A stretch of DNA of 64,000 nt, taken from NCBI GenBank assembly GCA_015228875.1, contig JADGCS010000006.1, positions 2,611-66,610 on the forward strand, written 5' to 3'. Positions 2,056 to 60,544 of this stretch are shown here, piece after piece (the stretch's first letter is position 1; the number at the start of each line of letters is the position of its first letter). This DNA comes from Deltaproteobacteria bacterium (GTDB taxonomy: Bacteria > UBA10199 > JADGCS01). The position numbers were made by a program, and so were the translations under genes. A model generated the notes under the pieces. That model made no database searches and was not told where the DNA came from. It saw only the letters and a list, made by a program, of their open reading frames with translations.

Positions 2056-3363
2056 TCAAAGGGAGTGTCTATTCCCCCCGTAGATCAACACATCAACCTT
2101 GTCCCTGCTTGTAAAGAGGTCGATGATTTCTTTGGTCCCGCGGAGTTTAAATCCGACCATGTCTGCCCGATACCCTTCTTTGATCATGCCGACTTTTTTC
2201 AATCCGATCGCATGGCACGCATTTGTTGTGATCATCGGCAGGAATTCGAACAGATTTGTCTTGGGATGTCTTTTTAAAAAAAGCCGGGTTTCCTGCAGAA
2301 AATTGAGTGTGCTGTTGCTGGCGATGCTGTCGGTCCCAAGGGCTATCGGGATTTTATTTTCTTTGTATTTTTTAAACGGAAATGAGTCATGCCCAAAAAA
2401 ATCAAAAGAGCCCGGGCAGTGCACGACACAGATGTTTGGCCACGTGGCCATGATTTTTATATCTTTGCTGTCTGTGTAATTTGCGTGGATGACGAGTGCG
2501 TGATGAAGGCTGTGTTTGTGATGGTGAATGAATTTAACAGCAGAGTCTGCTGCGTGCAGCGGGGATGTATGAATATCGGGCCTGAGGGCTGCAATAAAGA
2601 GCCACAGGGGGCCGGCGCGGTATTTAAAATAGTCACATTCCTCCCTTGATTCTGCAAGGTGCAGCGAGAGGGCCTTGTATTTTTTGCCAAGCACTGTTTT
2701 CAGCACCTCGGGTGACACGGCATGAACGGAATGCAGTGTCTGGTAAAAGGGGATCGGTGCATGCGTCAGGCTGTCCCTGATTTTACGCAATGCAAATTGA
2801 GACATCTCGGTTCTGGTCCCGACAACCTCTCCGAAGCCAATGACCCTGACCTGGACATCATTGTAGTAAGAGAGCGGTGTATCAAAACTGATGTGATCGA
2901 TGATTGTGGTACAGCCGGACAAAAGGTTGAGCCTTATGCCGGTGCGTATGGCATTCTTGACCTCTACTTTGCGTTGACCCTGTTTTTTTTCAAGGAGGGT
3001 TTTGATCCACGGTACAAATTTTTTTTCTTTGAGAGGACCAAGATTTGTGAGTTCGAGATGGCAGTGTGCATTGACAAAACCTGGGAGGAGCACGGTGTCT
3101 TTAAGCACTAAGCTGGGCGTGTCTACGCGTTTCGGCATCAATTTTTGCATGGCGCCCGCCCGCGTTGTGTTTTCAGCTTTATGCGGGTTAAGGATGCGCG
3201 CATGACTGAGCGCCTTTTTGGGGATGTGTTCTGAAATTTTTGTGATCACCCCGTTTTCAATGATGATCAGTGCCGGGCTGATTATTTTTGTATTTTCGAT
3301 TACGGCAGCAGAGGCGATGACCGCTATTTTTTTTTCCGCTTTATGCGGGTTATGAGATTTCAT
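2056..3363 (-). CDS. Amidohydrolase (probable aminodeoxyfutalosine deaminase) with an in-frame repeat B insertion
   Basis: LLPGFVNAHCHLE, HLAES and LGTDS metal-binding motifs; directly downstream of mqnC. Start placed at ATG 3363 (the ORF track gives 3393). Confidence 0.8.
   Translation of the reverse strand: MKSHNPHKAEKKIAVIASAAVIENTKIISPALIIIENGVITKISEHIPKKALSHARILNPHKAENTTRAGAMQKLMPKRVDTPSLVLKDTVLLPGFVNAHCHLELTNLGPLKEKKFVPWIKTLLEKKQGQRKVEVKNAIRTGIRLNLLSGCTTIIDHISFDTPLSYYNDVQVRVIGFGEVVGTRTEMSQFALRKIRDSLTHAPIPFYQTLHSVHAVSPEVLKTVLGKKYKALSLHLAESREECDYFKYRAGPLWLFIAALRPDIHTSPLHAADSAVKFIHHHKHSLHHALVIHANYTDSKDIKIMATWPNICVVHCPGSFDFFGHDSFPFKKYKENKIPIALGTDSIASNSTLNFLQETRLFLKRHPKTNLFEFLPMITTNACHAIGLKKVGMIKEGYRADMVGFKLRGTKEIIDLFTSRDKVDVLIYGGNRHSL
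3102..3190 (+). repeat. Repeat family B copy (left end diverged) inside the amidohydrolase, read on the minus strand as LNPHKAENTTRAGAMQKLMPKRVD
   Basis: 3122-3190 is near-identical to the B consensus (tctacgcgtttcggcatcaatttttgcatgg...ttatgcgggtta). Confidence 0.92.
3332..3354 (+). repeat. Right-end fragment of repeat B; contains the mqnC stop codon and encodes HNPHKAE in the amidohydrolase N-terminus
   Basis: ttttccgctttatgcgggttatg matches the B right end. Confidence 0.8.
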
Positions 3364-4435
3364 TATAAAAAGAATCCCGTTGATAAGGGACACACCCTGA
3401 TTTCTTTATGGCCCCTGCAAGATCCTCAGGTGTGAGATGCCCCGTGTTACTGCACCCTGCAAGACTGACCACATGCTCTTCGAGCATGACCGAACCGATA
3501 TCATCCGCCCCGTAGTGCAGGGCCATCTGCGCTGTTTTAATCCCCTGTGTGAGGCTGGATGCCTGAATGTGCTTAAAGTTGTCGAGGTAGAGACGGGCAA
3601 TGGAAATGAGTTTTAAATAATCATACGGTGTGGACAGGATGACGTCCTCGTTGTTTTTTAATCGCGGGTGAAGCGCCGTGTTTTCGGGCTGAAATGTCCA
3701 TGGTATAAACGAGATAAAACCCTGTGTCTTGTCCTGCAACTCCCTTAATTTTCTGAGATGTTCTATCCGGTCCGGCCACCTTTCGACATGACCCATCATC
3801 ATTGTCGCGGTGGTCTTTAAACCGAGTGTGTGGGCTGTCTGCATGACATCAAGCCACTGCGTGGCGGTACATTTGTTCATCGAGATGCGGTCGCGGATTT
3901 TGTCCACCAGTATTTCGGCCCCCCCGCCCGGGATGGAGGCAAGTCCCCTGTCCATCAGGCGATTAATGACCTCGCTGATACTTAAATGAGAGACCTGTGC
4001 TGCATGGTGAATCTCTGGAGGTGAAAAGGCGTGGATGTGAATTTTATGATGATTGTGAATATGCCCCACCAGGTTTTCCAGGTCGGTGATGGTGTAATCG
4101 GGGTGATTCCCTCCCTGCAACAGAACCCTTGTGCCCCCTTTTTTAAGGGTGTCCATGATTTTTTTGTCAATCGCCTCGTAAGATATTTCATAGGCCTCTT
4201 TGTGGCCCTTGGGTCTGTAAAATGCGCAGAAAAGGCATGTTGACTTGCAGATATTGGTGTAATTGATGTTCCGGTCGATCAGATAGGCAACACGGTTTTT
4301 GTTTTGCGCCCTGTTTTTTTTGTCGGCGTATCCTGCCAGTTTAAGGATGTCCCCGTTTTCTGCCAGGGCGAGTGCCTCGTCTTCGGAGAGGCGTCCTCCT
4401 GCATCTGCTTTAAAATAAATATTGTCCAATGACAT
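3350..4435 (-). CDS. mqnC: cyclic dehypoxanthinyl futalosine synthase (radical SAM)
   Basis: DRNINYTNICKSTCLFCAF (CxxxCxxC) and SIPGGGAEIL; next to mqnA. Confidence 0.9.
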   Translation of the reverse strand: MSLDNIYFKADAGGRLSEDEALALAENGDILKLAGYADKKNRAQNKNRVAYLIDRNINYTNICKSTCLFCAFYRPKGHKEAYEISYEAIDKKIMDTLKKGGTRVLLQGGNHPDYTITDLENLVGHIHNHHKIHIHAFSPPEIHHAAQVSHLSISEVINRLMDRGLASIPGGGAEILVDKIRDRISMNKCTATQWLDVMQTAHTLGLKTTATMMMGHVERWPDRIEHLRKLRELQDKTQGFISFIPWTFQPENTALHPRLKNNEDVILSTPYDYLKLISIARLYLDNFKHIQASSLTQGIKTAQMALHYGADDIGSVMLEEHVVSLAGCSNTGHLTPEDLAGAIKKSGCVPYQRDSFYNEIS

Positions 4436-4463: not shown

Positions 4464-5225
4464 TCAGGCCACTTTTAATTTGCGCGGCTCGCTGTACTGG
4501 TACTCTTTAAGATAGTCCTTGTAGAGTCTTAACCCGTCTTTAATAGCGGGGGTGGGTTCGTAGATGATGCTGTTTGTCAGGTAGTCGTTGACCAAGCCCC
4601 TTTGCTCCTTGTTAAAGGTGGAGCTGATATGATCGATGTGGGCGAGGCCTGCTGTTTTTGCATTTTTTAAGACGGCGATTTCGGCAGGTGTCAATGCGCG
4701 TTGTGATGCCCACGAGGCGAACATAAAACCCGCGCCTGTGTTTTGTTTCCAGACCGAGCCGATATCCCAGAACTTGTAGGGGAGACTGCTGTTAATTTCT
4801 GAAAAGAGGACTTTGTCTCCAATCAAAAGTTGGGCATCTGCCATTTCACGGTTATCGTAATGAAAGAACTCAAGGTCATAGAGACTGACGCCGTAAAACT
4901 TTTTTAGAATTATTTTTGCAAGGTACACGGATGAGAGTGATTCTTTGTCCATGTATATAGATTGAATCTGGCTTAAGTTTTCGATGTAGGAGCGGGTGTA
5001 AAAACCCACACTGCCCACATCACCGTCACAGGCGATGATGCCGGCATCGGGGTGCATGCGCAATTTGTGTTTAATGATACTGTAAAGCGGGAGCAGGGCG
5101 CAGTCGACGGTGCCATTAAGCAGTGCCGCCGCAAGTTCTGAGGGATACATTTTGATGATCTGGTTATTCTCCAAAAAATAACTGAGCGGAAGAGCATTGA
5201 TATAAGGTACGATTCCAATCTTCAT
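4464..5225 (-). CDS. mqnA: chorismate dehydratase
   Basis: IGIVPYINALPL, IACDGDVGSV, SLSSVYLAKI and LLIGD motifs; futalosine cluster context. Confidence 0.85.
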   Translation of the reverse strand: MKIGIVPYINALPLSYFLENNQIIKMYPSELAAALLNGTVDCALLPLYSIIKHKLRMHPDAGIIACDGDVGSVGFYTRSYIENLSQIQSIYMDKESLSSVYLAKIILKKFYGVSLYDLEFFHYDNREMADAQLLIGDKVLFSEINSSLPYKFWDIGSVWKQNTGAGFMFASWASQRALTPAEIAVLKNAKTAGLAHIDHISSTFNKEQRGLVNDYLTNSIIYEPTPAIKDGLRLYKDYLKEYQYSEPRKLKVA

Positions 5226-8153: not shown

Positions 8154-9407
8154 TTAATGGCACCCCCCAAGTGATTTAATCAAGCCCTTTGCGGTCTCGA
8201 CGTCTTCTTTATACTCGTCTGGTTTTCGTTTTACAAATTCGCAGTAAACATTTGCGGCCTCCGAGTTTTTTCCCGTCAATTGGTACATTTGACCGAGGAC
8301 AAAATAGGCGCGGTAGAAGGTGGCATCGAGCGTGATGGTTTTTTTGTACCACTCTGCGGCACTGCTGAAATTTTTAAGCTGCTGGTAGTTGTAGCCGATA
8401 TTAAATGTGGCCTCGGGGTAGTTGGGTTTGAGGGTCACCGCCGATTGATAGGCCCTGTTGGATTCTTGATAGGCCTCGTGCGATTGCGCGCTGCTGCCTT
8501 TTTCACTGAGCATGCTGGCGAGCTTGTAATAAGAGTATCCAATATTAAAATAGGCAAGTTCATTTGTGGGATCATCGATAATCACCTTGTTGAATTCATT
8601 GATGGCCATTGTGATGTTGTCATCCTTTAAATAATTGAGACCCATGTTAAGATGGGCGTGCGACGAATCGGGGTTGGCGACAATGGAATGGTTGAGGGCC
8701 TGCTGCGCCTTAAGCGTTTGTCCGGTCTTTGTATAAAGCTCTGCAAGGTTGTTCCATGCCTCTGCGAGGTTGGGGTCGATTTCGAGCGCCAGCTTGTAAC
8801 GGATGATGGCCTTTTCGTATTCACCCAGCCTGTGATACGCCATACCAAGTTGCATGTGTGCGTAAGGGTGGTCGCTGTTGATCTGTGTGGCTTTAACAAA
8901 ACACGCGGCGGCATCACTTAAGTGATCGAGGTTTTTGTCCTGCTTGTACAGATCCACATGGACAAGCCCTGCATTGTAATGCGCATCGGAGTATTTGTTG
9001 TTGTATTTTAAGGCCAGACCAAACTGTCTGAGCGCTTCTTTGTGATTTTTTAATTTAAGATAAACAATCCCAAGATGATTGTATGTTGATGGAAATTTTT
9101 TATCGAGACTGATGGCCCTTTTGAGAACAACGATGGCATCGTCAAAGCGTCCCTTGTGCTTGTAGGCAAGACCAAGGTTGCTTAAGGCCTCGACATATTT
9201 TGGGTTGAGCTCTGTGGCGATTTTAAATTCAAAGATCGCCCTGTCGATGTCCCCCTGATAGAGGGCTGTGACCCCCTTGTTGTTGTGCTGCACGGCCCTG
9301 TCCGAGGGTTTCTCCGCCTTTTTTGCAGAGACAGCATGAGGGATCAGGCATAGGATTAAAAACAACAGGGTCAGCATGGCGGCGGTTTTGTTATTTATGG
9401 TGTGCAT
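8154..9407 (-). CDS. Secreted TPR protein
   Basis: Signal peptide followed by about 10 TPRs. The first 16 aa of the listed ORF come from repeat B, so the start is placed at ATG 9407. Confidence 0.85.
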   Translation of the reverse strand: MHTINNKTAAMLTLLFLILCLIPHAVSAKKAEKPSDRAVQHNNKGVTALYQGDIDRAIFEFKIATELNPKYVEALSNLGLAYKHKGRFDDAIVVLKRAISLDKKFPSTYNHLGIVYLKLKNHKEALRQFGLALKYNNKYSDAHYNAGLVHVDLYKQDKNLDHLSDAAACFVKATQINSDHPYAHMQLGMAYHRLGEYEKAIIRYKLALEIDPNLAEAWNNLAELYTKTGQTLKAQQALNHSIVANPDSSHAHLNMGLNYLKDDNITMAINEFNKVIIDDPTNELAYFNIGYSYYKLASMLSEKGSSAQSHEAYQESNRAYQSAVTLKPNYPEATFNIGYNYQQLKNFSSAAEWYKKTITLDATFYRAYFVLGQMYQLTGKNSEAANVYCEFVKRKPDEYKEDVETAKGLIKSLGGCH

Positions 9408-9495
9408 AGAACCTTGGAAGGTTTTTTCTACGCGTTTCGGCATCAATTTTTGCATGGTGTCCGCCCGCGTAGTGTCTTCCGCTTTATGCGGGTTA
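9407..9495 (+). repeat. Repeat family B copy (intergenic)
   Basis: Full 87-bp TA-to-TA unit. Confidence 0.95.
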
Positions 9496-9500
9496 TGGAT

Positions 9501-23386: not shown

Positions 23387-23432
23387 CTGCAGGTCTTTCT
23401 ATTGTAGCATAAACAGGGGCATTGGCAAGGGG

Positions 23433-23521
23433 TAGAACCTTGGAAGGTTTTTTTTACGCGTTTCGGCATCAATTTTTGCATGGTGTCCGCCCGCGTAGTA
23501 TTTTCAGCTTTATGCGGGTTA
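23433..23521 (+). repeat. Repeat family B copy
   Basis: Full 87-bp TA-to-TA unit. Confidence 0.95.
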
Positions 23522-23553
23522 TGTGATTGTGACAGCACGGTTGTTGTGAGTTG

Positions 23554-38851: not shown

Positions 38852-38892
38852 GATTTTTGCATGACTATTCAACCAAAATAAGATATCGGGTT

Positions 38893-39044
38893 GGGGCCTG
38901 TCGGACAGCACCTGTTTCTCCGGAAGTTTGAAAATTTTGCCGCTTGCAAAATATTTCAAACCCTGAAAAATCATGTCTTTACATTTTGTCACGGGACATG
39001 ATTTTTCAGGACTCCTCCGAAACAGGTTCTGTCCGACAGGCCCC
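38893..39044 (+). mobile_element. Family C MITE-like element
   Basis: TIR ggggcctgtcggacagcacctgtttc / gaaacaggttctgtccgacaggcccc; interior almost identical to the 44261 copy. Confidence 0.88.
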
Positions 39045-39086
39045 TAGCTTAGTCCAGGCCCGCCAATCATATAAAATAAAAAAGGG

Positions 39087-44206: not shown

Positions 44207-44260
44207 AAGAGGGCATCAGCGTTTTACGAGGGGCCAGACCGCGTTGTTATCTGCTATCGC

Positions 44261-44418
44261 CTAGGAGCCTGTCGGACAACTCCTGTTTCTCCGGAAGTTT
44301 GAAAATTTTGCCGCTTGCAAAATATTTCAAACCCTGAAAAATCATGTCTTTACGTTTTGTCACGGGACATGATTTTTCAGGACTCCTCCGAAACAGGAGT
44401 TGTCCGACAGGCTCCTAG
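44261..44418 (+). mobile_element. Family C MITE-like element bounded by CTAG
   Basis: Perfect 29-bp IR ctaggagcctgtcggacaactcctgtttc / gaaacaggagttgtccgacaggctcctag. Confidence 0.9.
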
Positions 44419-50636: not shown

Positions 50637-50998
50637 TGTAAATCGTCTCCATGCGATCGTGTGTTTAAACATTTGAGAATTTTATTTTGACAGGCCGCGT
50701 GTGATTGATGCACCTGTTTGGATTAAAATCAGGTGTCTCCCCGCAGAGGGGCCTCTTTGGCGCCCGACGCGGGTTGTGGAAATTAACCGCGAGAAGTCAA
50801 GTTGCCGATTTTTTTTTTGGCCGGCAACGCTACTGATCGCAAAATAACGCCAGTCATCAAAAATCGGGAGCGGAATCTAACAAAAAAAAACGGTGTTTAG
50901 CAAGAGAAAAATTAAAAAAAAATCGTACACGATGGTGTCATCAAGTAAATCTGCGGGGATGTTTTTTTGTATCACTTGGCAAAGTGTTGATTTTAAAG

Positions 50999-51073
50999 CC
51001 TTAGCACTTCGATTCGCAAATACGGTAACGTAATTTGACTACCATTGAATTAAATTTTTGCTCACTCAGTACT
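50999..51073 (+). repeat. Repeat family E, 75-bp direct repeat (left of the arsA pair)
   Basis: 73/75 identical to 53126-53200. Confidence 0.92.
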
Positions 51074-52188
51074 TAGCTGTCCAACCAACCCATGACGTCG
51101 GCAACCATCTTCAGAGTCTTGATGTCGTGAACATCCGAGAGAAAGAGGGGGATAGTGCTTACATAATCGTTTCCAACAGAGTTGGTGATGGATGTGATCT
51201 GCCTCTTGTCTTTTTTGATCATGGGGACAAACAACCTGTAGTTATCGATGAGCAGATCAGCTTCGGCAGGTGAAAACTGCCCGACAAGCTCGTCCCTGCA
51301 GCTTTTTATTTTTTCGGGTGACAAAACATTTCCCTCATACACCCTGTTGATGATGATTTTTTTTAAGTTAAATCCCTGGTCGGAAATCTGCTTGAAGAAA
51401 TCCTGTGTTTCCATGATGGAATTGGCGTTTGTGGTGCAGACGATCACAAAGTGTGTGGTGTCGAGTTTAAGCAGCGAGTTGACTTCGGATGCCCTTGTTT
51501 CAAAGCCGCCCAGCAGATCTTTAAAGGCGACAATCATCTCGGACATTTCTTGAAGAAAGGCAAAACCCGTGATGCGGTCAAAGGCCTTGAGGATCTGCTG
51601 CGAACCTCTTTCAAGAAACTTGAGTCCTGATTTGCCGAGTGACAGTGAGGGCTTGAGCAACAGATGCAGCATCGAGTTGTTGATCATGTTCATCATTCTC
51701 TGAGGCGCACTTAAAAAATCCCTGGCATTTTGTACGGGAGGGGTGTCGACAATCATGACGTCAAATGTGTTTTGTTTGTAAATTTCGTACAGCCTTTCCA
51801 TGGCCATGTATTCCTGCGTGCCGGCGAGCATCTGCGACATGTGCTGATAAAGTTTGTTGTTGATGATTTTGTTTCTGGTTTCTGCGGATGAGGCGTATTT
51901 TTCGATGATGCGGTCGAAGGTTCTCTTGGTGTCGAGCATCATGGCCCACATCTCACCCCCGTTGTTTTCGGGGAGTGTTATTTTTTCCGGTTCGTCGGAG
52001 AGGCTTTTGATCCCCAGAGAATCGGCGAGCCTTTTTGCGGGATCAATGGTCAACACAATGGTCTTGTATCCTGCGAGGCTCATTTTAAGCCCCATGGCGG
52101 CTGCGATGGTTGTTTTTCCAACACCGCCGCTGCCGCAGACGAGCAGAACTCTGGTTTCCCTATGATGATCCGGATTGAGAGTATTCAC
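51073..52188 (-). CDS. ArsA/GET3-family ATPase (GSGGVGKT type)
   Basis: GSGGVGKTT, TIDPAKRLA, GTQEYMAME and DTPP. Confidence 0.9.
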   Translation of the reverse strand: MNTLNPDHHRETRVLLVCGSGGVGKTTIAAAMGLKMSLAGYKTIVLTIDPAKRLADSLGIKSLSDEPEKITLPENNGGEMWAMMLDTKRTFDRIIEKYASSAETRNKIINNKLYQHMSQMLAGTQEYMAMERLYEIYKQNTFDVMIVDTPPVQNARDFLSAPQRMMNMINNSMLHLLLKPSLSLGKSGLKFLERGSQQILKAFDRITGFAFLQEMSEMIVAFKDLLGGFETRASEVNSLLKLDTTHFVIVCTTNANSIMETQDFFKQISDQGFNLKKIIINRVYEGNVLSPEKIKSCRDELVGQFSPAEADLLIDNYRLFVPMIKKDKRQITSITNSVGNDYVSTIPLFLSDVHDIKTLKMVADVMGWLDS

Positions 52189-53108: not shown

Positions 53109-53125
53109 AAATCTGTCTTTTAAGT

Positions 53126-53200
53126 CCTTAGTACTTCGATTCGCAAATACGGTAACGTAATTTGATTACCATTGAATTAAATTTTTGCTCACTCAGTACT
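53126..53200 (+). repeat. Repeat family E, 75-bp direct repeat (right of the arsA pair)
   Basis: ccttagtacttcgattcgcaaatacgg...gctcactcagtact. Confidence 0.92.
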
Positions 53201-53258
53201 GAGTGCCGAGTGAATAAATATGTTGCCATATTTATGAATCGAGGTCCTTAGCTCCACA

Positions 53259-60295: not shown

Positions 60296-60460
60296 CAGAA
60301 CCTTGGAAGGTTTTTTCTACGCGCCGGGGTCTGGCGCATAGCGCCGGACATGAAATCATTCATGTCCGATCGCAATGCACCCCGCGTAGTGTCTGGCGCA
60401 TAGCGCCAAACATGAAACCCTTCATGTTTGATCGCAATGCACTCCGCTTTATGCGGGTTA
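60296..60460 (+). repeat. Repeat family B variant with two copies of module M
   Basis: B ends; M at 60329-60380 (replacing the B centre) and at 60391-60442. Confidence 0.92.
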
Positions 60461-60461
60461 T

Positions 60462-60544
60462 GAATTTCAAAGTCGACAGAGCGCGGGTGCAGTCCTCGCA
60501 TGACGAAGGGACTCAATCGCATAAAAGTCAAGCTGGTAATTTGT
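60462..60544 (+). repeat. Repeat family A copy fused directly to the preceding B element
   Basis: gaatttcaaagtcgacagagcgcgggtgcagtcctcg...gtcaagctggtaatttgt. Confidence 0.92.

Follow-up and report, generated by a model that had tools for sequence, protein, structure and literature searches.

A dispersed three-hairpin repeat, probably a tolerated in-frame insertion, in an mqnC-linked amidohydrolase gene of a deltaproteobacterium

The amidohydrolase gene and its insert

We analyzed a stretch of 64,000 nucleotides from a Deltaproteobacteria bacterium (assembly GCA_015228875.1, contig JADGCS010000006.1, positions 2,611 to 66,610 of the forward strand), here called the window, in which an aminofutalosine-deaminase-like amidohydrolase gene carries an in-frame copy of a dispersed three-hairpin repeat. 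The gene lies directly downstream of mqnC and of a VitK2_biosynth family gene, and the features of the locus are listed in Table 1. The copy amounts to a net insert of 87 nt, or 29 codons, which the amidohydrolase reads from the minus strand as residues N59-L87 (435-amino-acid numbering). Owing to a flanking direct repeat, the register of the insert can slide by up to 3 nt either way.

Table 1. Features of the amidohydrolase locus, in window coordinates.
Feature	Position	Strand	Basis or remarks
Amidohydrolase gene, host of the insert	2056..3363	-	435 aa from ATG 3363; aminofutalosine-deaminase-like
Alternative ORF (open reading frame) call of the amidohydrolase	2056..3393	-	GTG 3393 start, 445 aa
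Net 87-nt (29-codon) insert, copy of the dispersed three-hairpin repeat, subfamily B2	3103..3189	+	Repeat profile, orthologue gaps, subfamily alignment
TTAAG, left copy of 5-bp direct repeat	3101..3105	.	87 nt from partner
TTAAG, right copy of 5-bp direct repeat	3188..3192	.	Sequence
B2 left hairpin module and T-run, degenerate	3105..3122	+	Codes D81-L87 (DTPSLVL); B1 profile gives no confident alignment here
Central module CTACGCG ... CGCGTTG	3123..3167	+	Consensus CGCGTAG, one stem pair broken; codes most of the low-confidence loop
Right hairpin CAGC-TTTAT-GCGG	3174..3186	+	Consensus CCGC, one pair weakened
Solo right-hand repeat module	3331..3354	+	Second nhmmer match, E=5.9e-5
mqnC (cyclic dehypoxanthinyl futalosine synthase)	3350..4435	-	TIGR03699, 432.6 bits vs. 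cut-off 428.1
VitK2_biosynth family gene (MqnA/MqnD-type)	4464..5225	-	Pfam PF02621, E=4.5e-32; same direction, further upstream

Comparison with orthologues was based on an alignment of this protein with 24 homologues (40-49% identity, 386-414 amino acids), 25 sequences in total. The interval from ...EHIPKKA to LLPGFVNAHCH spans about 47 residues here vs. mostly 17-18 in the 24 homologues. The insert segment was absent from all 24; in the homologue P0020, this loop holds a shorter insert of unrelated sequence. The PG[FL]xNAHxH motif was found in 115 of the 120 homologues listed; its start is at residue 94 in the present protein, compared to 53-59 in 89 of the 115. In tblastn searches against three genomes of the same family, the alignment stopped at query residue 52 or 53 and restarted at 84-86, with 2-4 subject codons between. 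A first-pass annotation of this DNA had counted 27-29 extra codons. The extra codons are real, but the count was slightly low: the net number is 29, and the MAFFT alignment gave 29-30. Without the insert, the native sequence would read ...SHARIL followed directly by KDTVLLPGF, and the loop would have the same length as in the orthologues.

The same annotation had placed a repeat copy at this site, and the repeat searches agreed with the orthologue comparison in bearing this out. In a repeat search of the window, positions 3098-3192 grouped with 440-534, 9403-9497, and 23429-23523 in a four-copy family (ungapped identity to the reference copy, 79%). When 89 near-full-length copies from the genome were combined into a profile, it aligned to 3118-3191 (nhmmer, E=1.6e-22), and a 15-mer from the right end of the repeat occurred 8 times in the window, compared to 0.14 expected by chance. 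The TTAAG direct repeat at the two edges may be a target-site duplication. A typical full-length copy of the repeat in a lysyl-tRNA synthetase (LysRS) gene elsewhere in the genome corresponds to a gap of exactly 29 codons relative to two relatives, and has TTAA flanks in the same register. Because the TTAAG sites lie 87 nt apart and the LysRS gap is exactly 29 codons, the net insert was taken as 87 nt in both genes.

The insert sits between the strands of the N-terminal beta-sandwich and the strand leading to the HxH motif, about 13 residues before HxH. Both the alignment and the structural model thus placed it inside the folded amidohydrolase domain, as had been claimed. The reading frame is intact. 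The 25 aligned sequences have 39 invariant columns, all of which this protein necessarily retains. These columns include H100, H102, H235, E238, H293, H315, and D345, which belong to an amidohydrolase fold with HxH, HxxE, His, and Asp, and which we take to be the metal-binding and catalytic residues. The earlier statement that the catalytic motifs are retained in an unbroken frame was therefore upheld. A mis-called start had also been dismissed as an explanation, correctly, since the N-terminal strands upstream of the insert align with those of the orthologues.

P0020 comes from another lineage. Its insert of about 20 residues (...PNTTEILRFAQDDKIQL...) lies in the loop before LFPGF and is unrelated to the repeat; its presence suggests that this loop is permissive. 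The RFAQDDK-like peptide within it presumably resembles translated repeats of other uncultured bacteria.

An AlphaFold2 model computed with the 25-sequence alignment had a mean predicted local distance difference test score (pLDDT) of 90.3 and a predicted template modelling score (pTM) of 0.89. Values of pLDDT below 50 were found only at residues 1-7 and 59-80, both coded by repeat sequence, and residues 59-80 were modelled without secondary structure. The model is consistent with the surface loop predicted at first pass. Residues 84-94, which open with the element-coded S-L-V-L, were modelled as the strand leading to H100 and H102.

The left arm of the insert deserves separate treatment. In the main subfamily of the repeat, B1, the left hairpin is AACCTTGGAAGGTT, and the B1 profile does not align to 3105-3122. 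A genome search with the 3105-3122 segment identified a minor subfamily, B2, in which the left hairpin GCACTAAGCAGTGC is followed by TTTT and then by the usual CTACGCG... core. B2 has seven other copies in the genome, rather diverged from one another. The B2 consensus codes for ...MPKRVEKHCLVL in the frame used by the amidohydrolase, and already contains ...RVEKHCLVL. Compared to the B2 left module, the amidohydrolase copy has only four private substitutions (positions 3114, 3116, 3119, and 3121), all of them nonsynonymous (EKHC to DTPS), which jointly destroy the left hairpin. The divergence of the left 20 bp had been read as possible protein-level adaptation. In that form the reading was not supported, as most of the divergence is a difference between subfamilies and just four changes are specific to the copy. 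Selection acting at the level of the protein or of mRNA structure might account for these four, which are too few to test. With the B2 subfamily identified, two other accounts of the left arm were discarded: that a loop of naturally greater length holds a copy cut down to 69 nt, and that the copy is complete but its left hairpin is heavily mutated.

In the amidohydrolase copy the stems of all three hairpins have been weakened, with fold z-scores of -1.4 on the strand of the gene and -0.1 on the other strand, compared to -3.5 and -2.4 for a typical copy. The copy and its nearest subfamily member differ at 7 of about 66 positions; typical copies, by comparison, show 95-99% identity. Immediately to the right of the insert, positions 3191-3215 (palindrome ATGCGCGCAT) are unique in the genome and do not represent a further repeat module.

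A second repeat-derived piece, the solo right-hand module in Table 1, was detected at the 5' end of the same gene. It provides the TAA stop codon of mqnC as well as residues H4-K11 of the amidohydrolase (HNPHKAEK), in the same frame as the main insert. Residues H4-K11 were not found in the aligned orthologues.

The repeat family and its copies in other genes

A total of 232 blastn matches to the repeat were found in the genome. Near-full-length copies numbered 89, most with 95-99% identity. Both end modules were present in 159 copies, with end-to-end lengths of 88 nt (79 copies), 136 nt (30), 89 nt (26), and 137 nt (7). The long form contains an extra 48-nt module, has a net length of 135 nt, and likewise extends a gene by whole codons. 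Three hairpins form when the consensus is folded (z=-3.5 for the minus strand, -2.4 for the plus strand). The central stem is framed by GTAG and its complement, with a short hairpin outward of each, and the unit is always a composite of about 88 nt. The stop-free frames of the consensus include the minus-strand frame HNPHKAENTTRADTMQKLMPKRVEKTFQGS, which is strongly hydrophilic (grand average of hydropathy, GRAVY, -1.48) and is the one used by the amidohydrolase, and two plus-strand frames that are hydrophobic or neutral.

BLAST searches of 40 relatives yielded no full-length copy, the matches being limited to three stretches of 19-24 nt (E from 2.4e-4 to 9e-3). An exact 30-mer from the core had 0 matches in public genome and metagenome contig collections, from which the records of this genome itself were perhaps excluded. 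The genome, with 4.58 Mb, is larger than those of all 40 relatives searched (1.6-3.7 Mb).

Copies lying in frame within other genes were sought in two screens. The first considered copy-frame combinations with at least 50 open codons on either side (n=37), a design that could not detect broken genes. From these, alternative frames (C11 and C54), a duplicate locus (C149), short frames (C122, C156, and C93), and the amidohydrolase were dropped, and 30 distinct frames were submitted to Pfam. In seven of the 30, a Pfam domain spans the repeat or domains are found on both sides of it: a class II aminoacyl-tRNA synthetase, the Lactamase_B domain of ComEC, an OppD-like ATPase, Mfd, a PNP_UDP_1 protein, a FabD-like acyltransferase, and a radical-SAM/DUF2344 protein. 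The last of these frames could instead be two genes bridged by the repeat. Among the remaining frames, four had a domain upstream in the same open frame, nine had domains only downstream, and ten had no match; a leader may hold the repeat where domains were only downstream. When the LysRS and the acyltransferase were aligned to solved structures, the matches broke exactly at the repeat.

In the second screen, each of the 159 elements was deleted in silico, and junction frames with at least 100 open codons on both sides were retained. Twenty junction frames passed. The element was stop-free in 18 of them, and 15 were in the single open, hydrophilic minus-strand phase; the two exceptions were a copy of 137 nt and a plus-strand copy containing a stop. 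Copies of 89 nt, 26 in all, were absent from these long junction frames. As judged from these frames, the bias in phase and length is the pattern to be expected from purifying selection on a translated insert, and not from excision or bypass.

The LysRS gene (L094, G000:C145:23939-25594, plus strand) provides the clearest comparison. A full-length copy, 97.7% identical, occupies residues 378-407 in the catalytic domain, and relative to the same-family genomes G004 and G001 the insert is exactly 29 codons long. This was the only LysRS found in the genome: no class I LysRS scored over the cut-off, and the next class II match was 31% identical.

Three further hosts were recorded. A PNP_UDP_1, futalosine-hydrolase-like (MqnB-like) nucleosidase (L103, G000:C165:4610-5329, minus strand) has the repeat in frame within its domain, at residues 109-138. 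Its TIGR03664 score of 69.9 bits is below the cut-off of 124.7, and it is a second futalosine-pathway candidate with the repeat. In a ComEC-like protein (L095, G000:C148:20690-23329, plus strand), the long form (136 nt) lies in frame in the Lactamase_B domain, at residues ~669-704. The extra 48-nt module of the long form codes for ...IKHEGFHVWRCAPD..., and the same peptide precedes the core in about 10 other open frames. The third, a PMT_2-type membrane glycosyltransferase (L093, G000:C144:45001-46785, plus strand), contains a copy in the opposite orientation at residues 232-261, which is read in a hydrophobic frame (EPWKVFSTRFGINFCMVSARVVFSALCGL); a hydrophobic insert might be tolerated in a host of this type.

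Known elements and competing explanations

For Rickettsia palindromic elements (RPEs; Ogata et al. 2000, 2002), a sizeable share of the copies is placed in frame within numerous genes, and the proteins concerned are assumed to remain functional with the peptide on their surface, as outlined in parts of two later papers (PMC10969869, PMC3733652). The repeat described here is RPE-like in being a dispersed hairpin repeat that codes for a conserved peptide and is found in frame inside unrelated housekeeping genes. It shares the traits of an RPE-like class, namely a high-copy hairpin repeat with in-frame copies in unrelated conserved genes that are left unbroken. By description it is set apart from the families RPE-1 to RPE-10, as it has no CGTC tag and its host is not Rickettsia-like: the host genome measures 4.6 Mb, and its homologues bear the labels Deltaproteobacteria or "bacterium". 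RPEs have a length of about 150 bp, carry the CGTC tag, and are known from Rickettsia, according to the relevant section of PMC3733652, whereas the present element has a net length of 87 nt and CTAC/GTAG tags round its central stem. It is also modular: its left hairpins can be exchanged for one another, and a 48-nt module may be present or absent.

Two other classes are similar in part. GTAG repetitive extragenic palindromes (REPs) are palindromes of 20-40 bp that end in GTAG, often occur as inverted pairs, and are typically linked to genes of REP-associated tyrosine transposases (RAYTs) that the repeats flank; intragenic REPs are located inside ORFs of known proteins in several species and add a few tens of residues (both from portions of Di Nocera et al. 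2013, PMC3733652). The GTAG tags recall those of REPs, but the element here is a fixed composite of three hairpins and does not flank Y1_Tnp genes. Among bacterial MITEs (miniature transposable elements with inverted repeats), which measure 70-300 bp, in-frame fusions are described for enterobacterial repetitive intergenic consensus (ERIC) elements, QMITE1 of Coxiella, and MITEs of Anabaena (in sections of PMC10969869 and PMC5896051). Like these, the present repeat is non-autonomous and high-copy, with some copies in frame, and its TA/TTAA direct repeats would fit a TA-duplicating transposase; the left end has TA in 68 of the 89 near-full-length copies. It differs from MITEs in its weak inverted termini and in that no autonomous parent with the same ends was seen. 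No Rfam family reached its gathering score anywhere in the window, and a keyword search of open-access text returned no report of the element or of such elements in this lineage. By analogy, we regard Rickettsia palindromic elements and intragenic REPs as the closest known analogues.

We consider it highly probable that the insert is a non-autonomous mobile repeat in the coding sequence of the amidohydrolase, translated as a tolerated passenger loop of an enzyme that is likely active. According to this explanation, a mobile repeat of 85-88 nt, composed of a left hairpin, a CTACGCG...CGCGTAG stem, and a right CCGC...GCGG hairpin, would have inserted into the mqnC-linked gene, presumably by transposition with duplication of TA or TTAA. 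Because the net gain is 87 nt, the reading frame would continue through the element, which is stop-free in this orientation and phase. The element would then be transcribed and translated together with the gene, adding about 29 mostly hydrophilic residues. These are predicted to form a disordered loop on the small N-terminal beta-sandwich domain, just before the HxH strand enters the barrel. In the model, that strand starts with the element-coded LVL, and the native ...ARIL has moved into the loop. The enzyme has most likely remained active despite the insert, and the insert is most likely a tolerated passenger and not a new functional domain.

Several results weigh against this explanation. 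No close relative (>50% identity) with an empty site was found, and the insertion is read from distant orthologues; a related-locus search of public genome contigs gave distant homologues only (23-33% identity) and no empty site. The terminal inverted repeats are weak (~A[G/T]AACC, about 5 of 6 nt). No autonomous parent with the same ends was seen; at spacings of 401-3000 nt there was a single left/right end pair, on contig C11 (2414 nt). The repeat flanks none of the 10 Y1_Tnp genes over the cut-off: nine have no copy within 3 kb, and the tenth has one copy about 1.3 kb away. An origin from a RAYT/REPtron was rejected, as no repeats flank the Y1-transposase genes. For the loop, low pLDDT means that there is no confident prediction, and is no proof of disorder or surface exposure. 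The assembly (4.58 Mb, 94.8% complete) consists of 228 contigs with an estimated contamination of 4.55%. Finally, three stop-free frames out of six are not unusual for 87 nt (we estimate about 0.25 per frame), and therefore provide no evidence that the element evolved to be compatible with coding.

Among the rival explanations, exaptation would mean that selection maintains the loop, including the change from EKHC to DTPS, and that the enzyme has come to use it, for example for contacts within an oligomer, for regulation, or for binding a partner. It would fit a copy that is older than most (7 of about 66 differences compared to the typical 95-99% identity) and in which all three hairpins are weakened (z=-1.4 on the strand of the gene vs. 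-3.5). The four left-arm changes, all nonsynonymous, lie within 8 nt and cost the peptide one Cys and one His; in the model, the element-coded LVL belongs to a beta-strand. Yet the same peptide occurs in the unrelated LysRS, acyltransferase, Mfd, and ComEC, which speaks against a specific function; the loop is predicted to be without structure; four substitutions are statistically untestable; and decay of the hairpins is equally expected from neutral drift or from selection against mRNA structure. We judge exaptation unlikely. Inactivation of the enzyme is even less so to be expected, and we hold it very improbable. The insert would in that case disrupt folding near the metal site and the gene would be a young pseudogene still free of stops, for which one may cite the distance of only about 13 residues to HxH and an NCBIfam match that begins only after the insert. 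However, the 435-codon ORF is intact, every invariant residue is kept, and confidence in the modelled fold around the insert is high. As a diverged copy it is not very recent, yet its frame is clean. The gene is the sole orthologue in the genome, its operon partners mqnC and the MqnA/D-type gene are intact, and the same element is tolerated in the sole LysRS, which is necessarily functional.

Hairpin-rich mobile inserts that ribosomes bypass occur in phage T4 gene 60 and in a yeast mitochondrion. Since the consensus of the present repeat forms stable hairpins, removal by RNA processing or skipping by the ribosome could in principle yield a mature enzyme without the loop. Phase and length would then be free, but 18 of the 20 junction frames are stop-free over the element, 15 share one phase, and copies of 89 nt are absent from them; in addition, the hairpins of the amidohydrolase copy itself are degraded. 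We regard such removal as extremely unlikely. Misplacement of a repeat copy into the gene by the assembler, conceivable in a fragmented assembly of 228 contigs rich in near-identical repeats, is scarcely credible. Both flanks of the copy are adjacent parts of one gene in one frame, a rare, diverged subfamily with private substitutions is not a collapsed consensus, 87 nt is shorter than the usual read, and an equally clean in-frame arrangement was found in seven or more other genes.

A wider hypothesis is offered tentatively, and we hold it less likely than not. According to it, this uncultured lineage carries an independent analogue of the "protein-coding palindromes" of Rickettsia: modular, adding exactly 29 or 45 codons, and using one hydrophilic, stop-free frame in nearly all intragenic copies. 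The analogue would have spread into at least 18 long reading frames, among them that of the only LysRS and those of two futalosine-pathway enzymes. In the boldest form of the hypothesis, the element would have been shaped by selection for harmless translation. The grounds for this may be its length as a multiple of three, its disordered, hydrophilic peptide, and a terminator-like hairpin that is present only in the other orientation.

If the hypothesis were true, coding regions would be a usable niche for the element, and the element a steady source of new surface loops for its host. In-frame palindromic repeats in housekeeping genes are best known from Rickettsia, and other cases have been treated as sporadic, as part of PMC10969869 presents them. 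The present genome would constitute a second, independent system in which to study the tolerance of proteins to random 29-residue insertions and their permissive loops, and would make it possible to test if new function can arise from such inserts. The presence of the repeat has practical consequences as well. The repeat distorts gene calling, as starts are called inside it, and it splits matches and lowers family scores; it can thereby make essential genes look aberrant in automated annotation.

Gene context and further observations

The amidohydrolase ORF matched Pfam Amidohydro_1 (E=5.9e-28). The best NCBIfam model was NF006269, "aminofutalosine deaminase family hydrolase", with 137.7 bits against a cut-off of 320, which was thus not reached. 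The insert-free orthologue in the same-family genome G002 scored only 134.3 bits. Because this orthologue scores equally low, the low value is an effect of the clade and not of the insert. The NF006269 match begins after the insert (profile position 36) in the present protein, compared to a contiguous match from position 15 in G002.

The start of the amidohydrolase gene overlaps mqnC, immediately upstream, by 14 nt, and the order mqnC to amidohydrolase was also found in G002. Together with the VitK2_biosynth gene, mqnC links the amidohydrolase directly to futalosine-pathway genes. The label "futalosine-pathway" for the amidohydrolase is based on this gene context and on a family match below cut-off, and should be considered putative. 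In its own genome the protein is the sole orthologue, the next match being 26% identical.

The nearest solved proteins by sequence were Nis_0429 (3v7p/4m51) and the Helicobacter pylori aminofutalosine deaminase (AFLDA, 7lkj), with E=2.7e-22 and 1.4e-16. The modelled fold best matched 4m51 and 7lkj, with template modelling (TM) scores of 0.82-0.85 normalized to the target and an identity of only 19-22%. These aminodeoxyfutalosine deaminases share with the present protein the amidohydrolase fold and the active-site-type residues; here the gene is adjacent to mqnC. The solved proteins are without the 29-residue loop and without the 8-residue repeat-derived segment near the N-terminus.

Further observations concern the repeat elsewhere in the window and in the genome. 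An ORF of 433 aa at 8154-9455 (minus strand) has its called ATG inside the repeat copy 9403-9497 (MQKLMPKR...), a case of a mis-called start, and many further long frames in the genome start inside a copy. A second repeat family, of 98 nt with the core GCGCGGGTGCA...TCGCAAAATGGAGG, has six copies in the window, among them 345-442, which lies beside 444-534, and 60447-60544. This family often abuts the repeat studied here, and many of its copies in the genome run straight into AATTTCAAAGTCGACAGAGCGCGGGTGCAT, forming composite arrays. The window also contains two-copy direct repeats unrelated to the element, at 38884-39047 and 44255-44418 (164 nt, 93%) and at 50991-51076 and 53118-53203 (86 nt, 94%).

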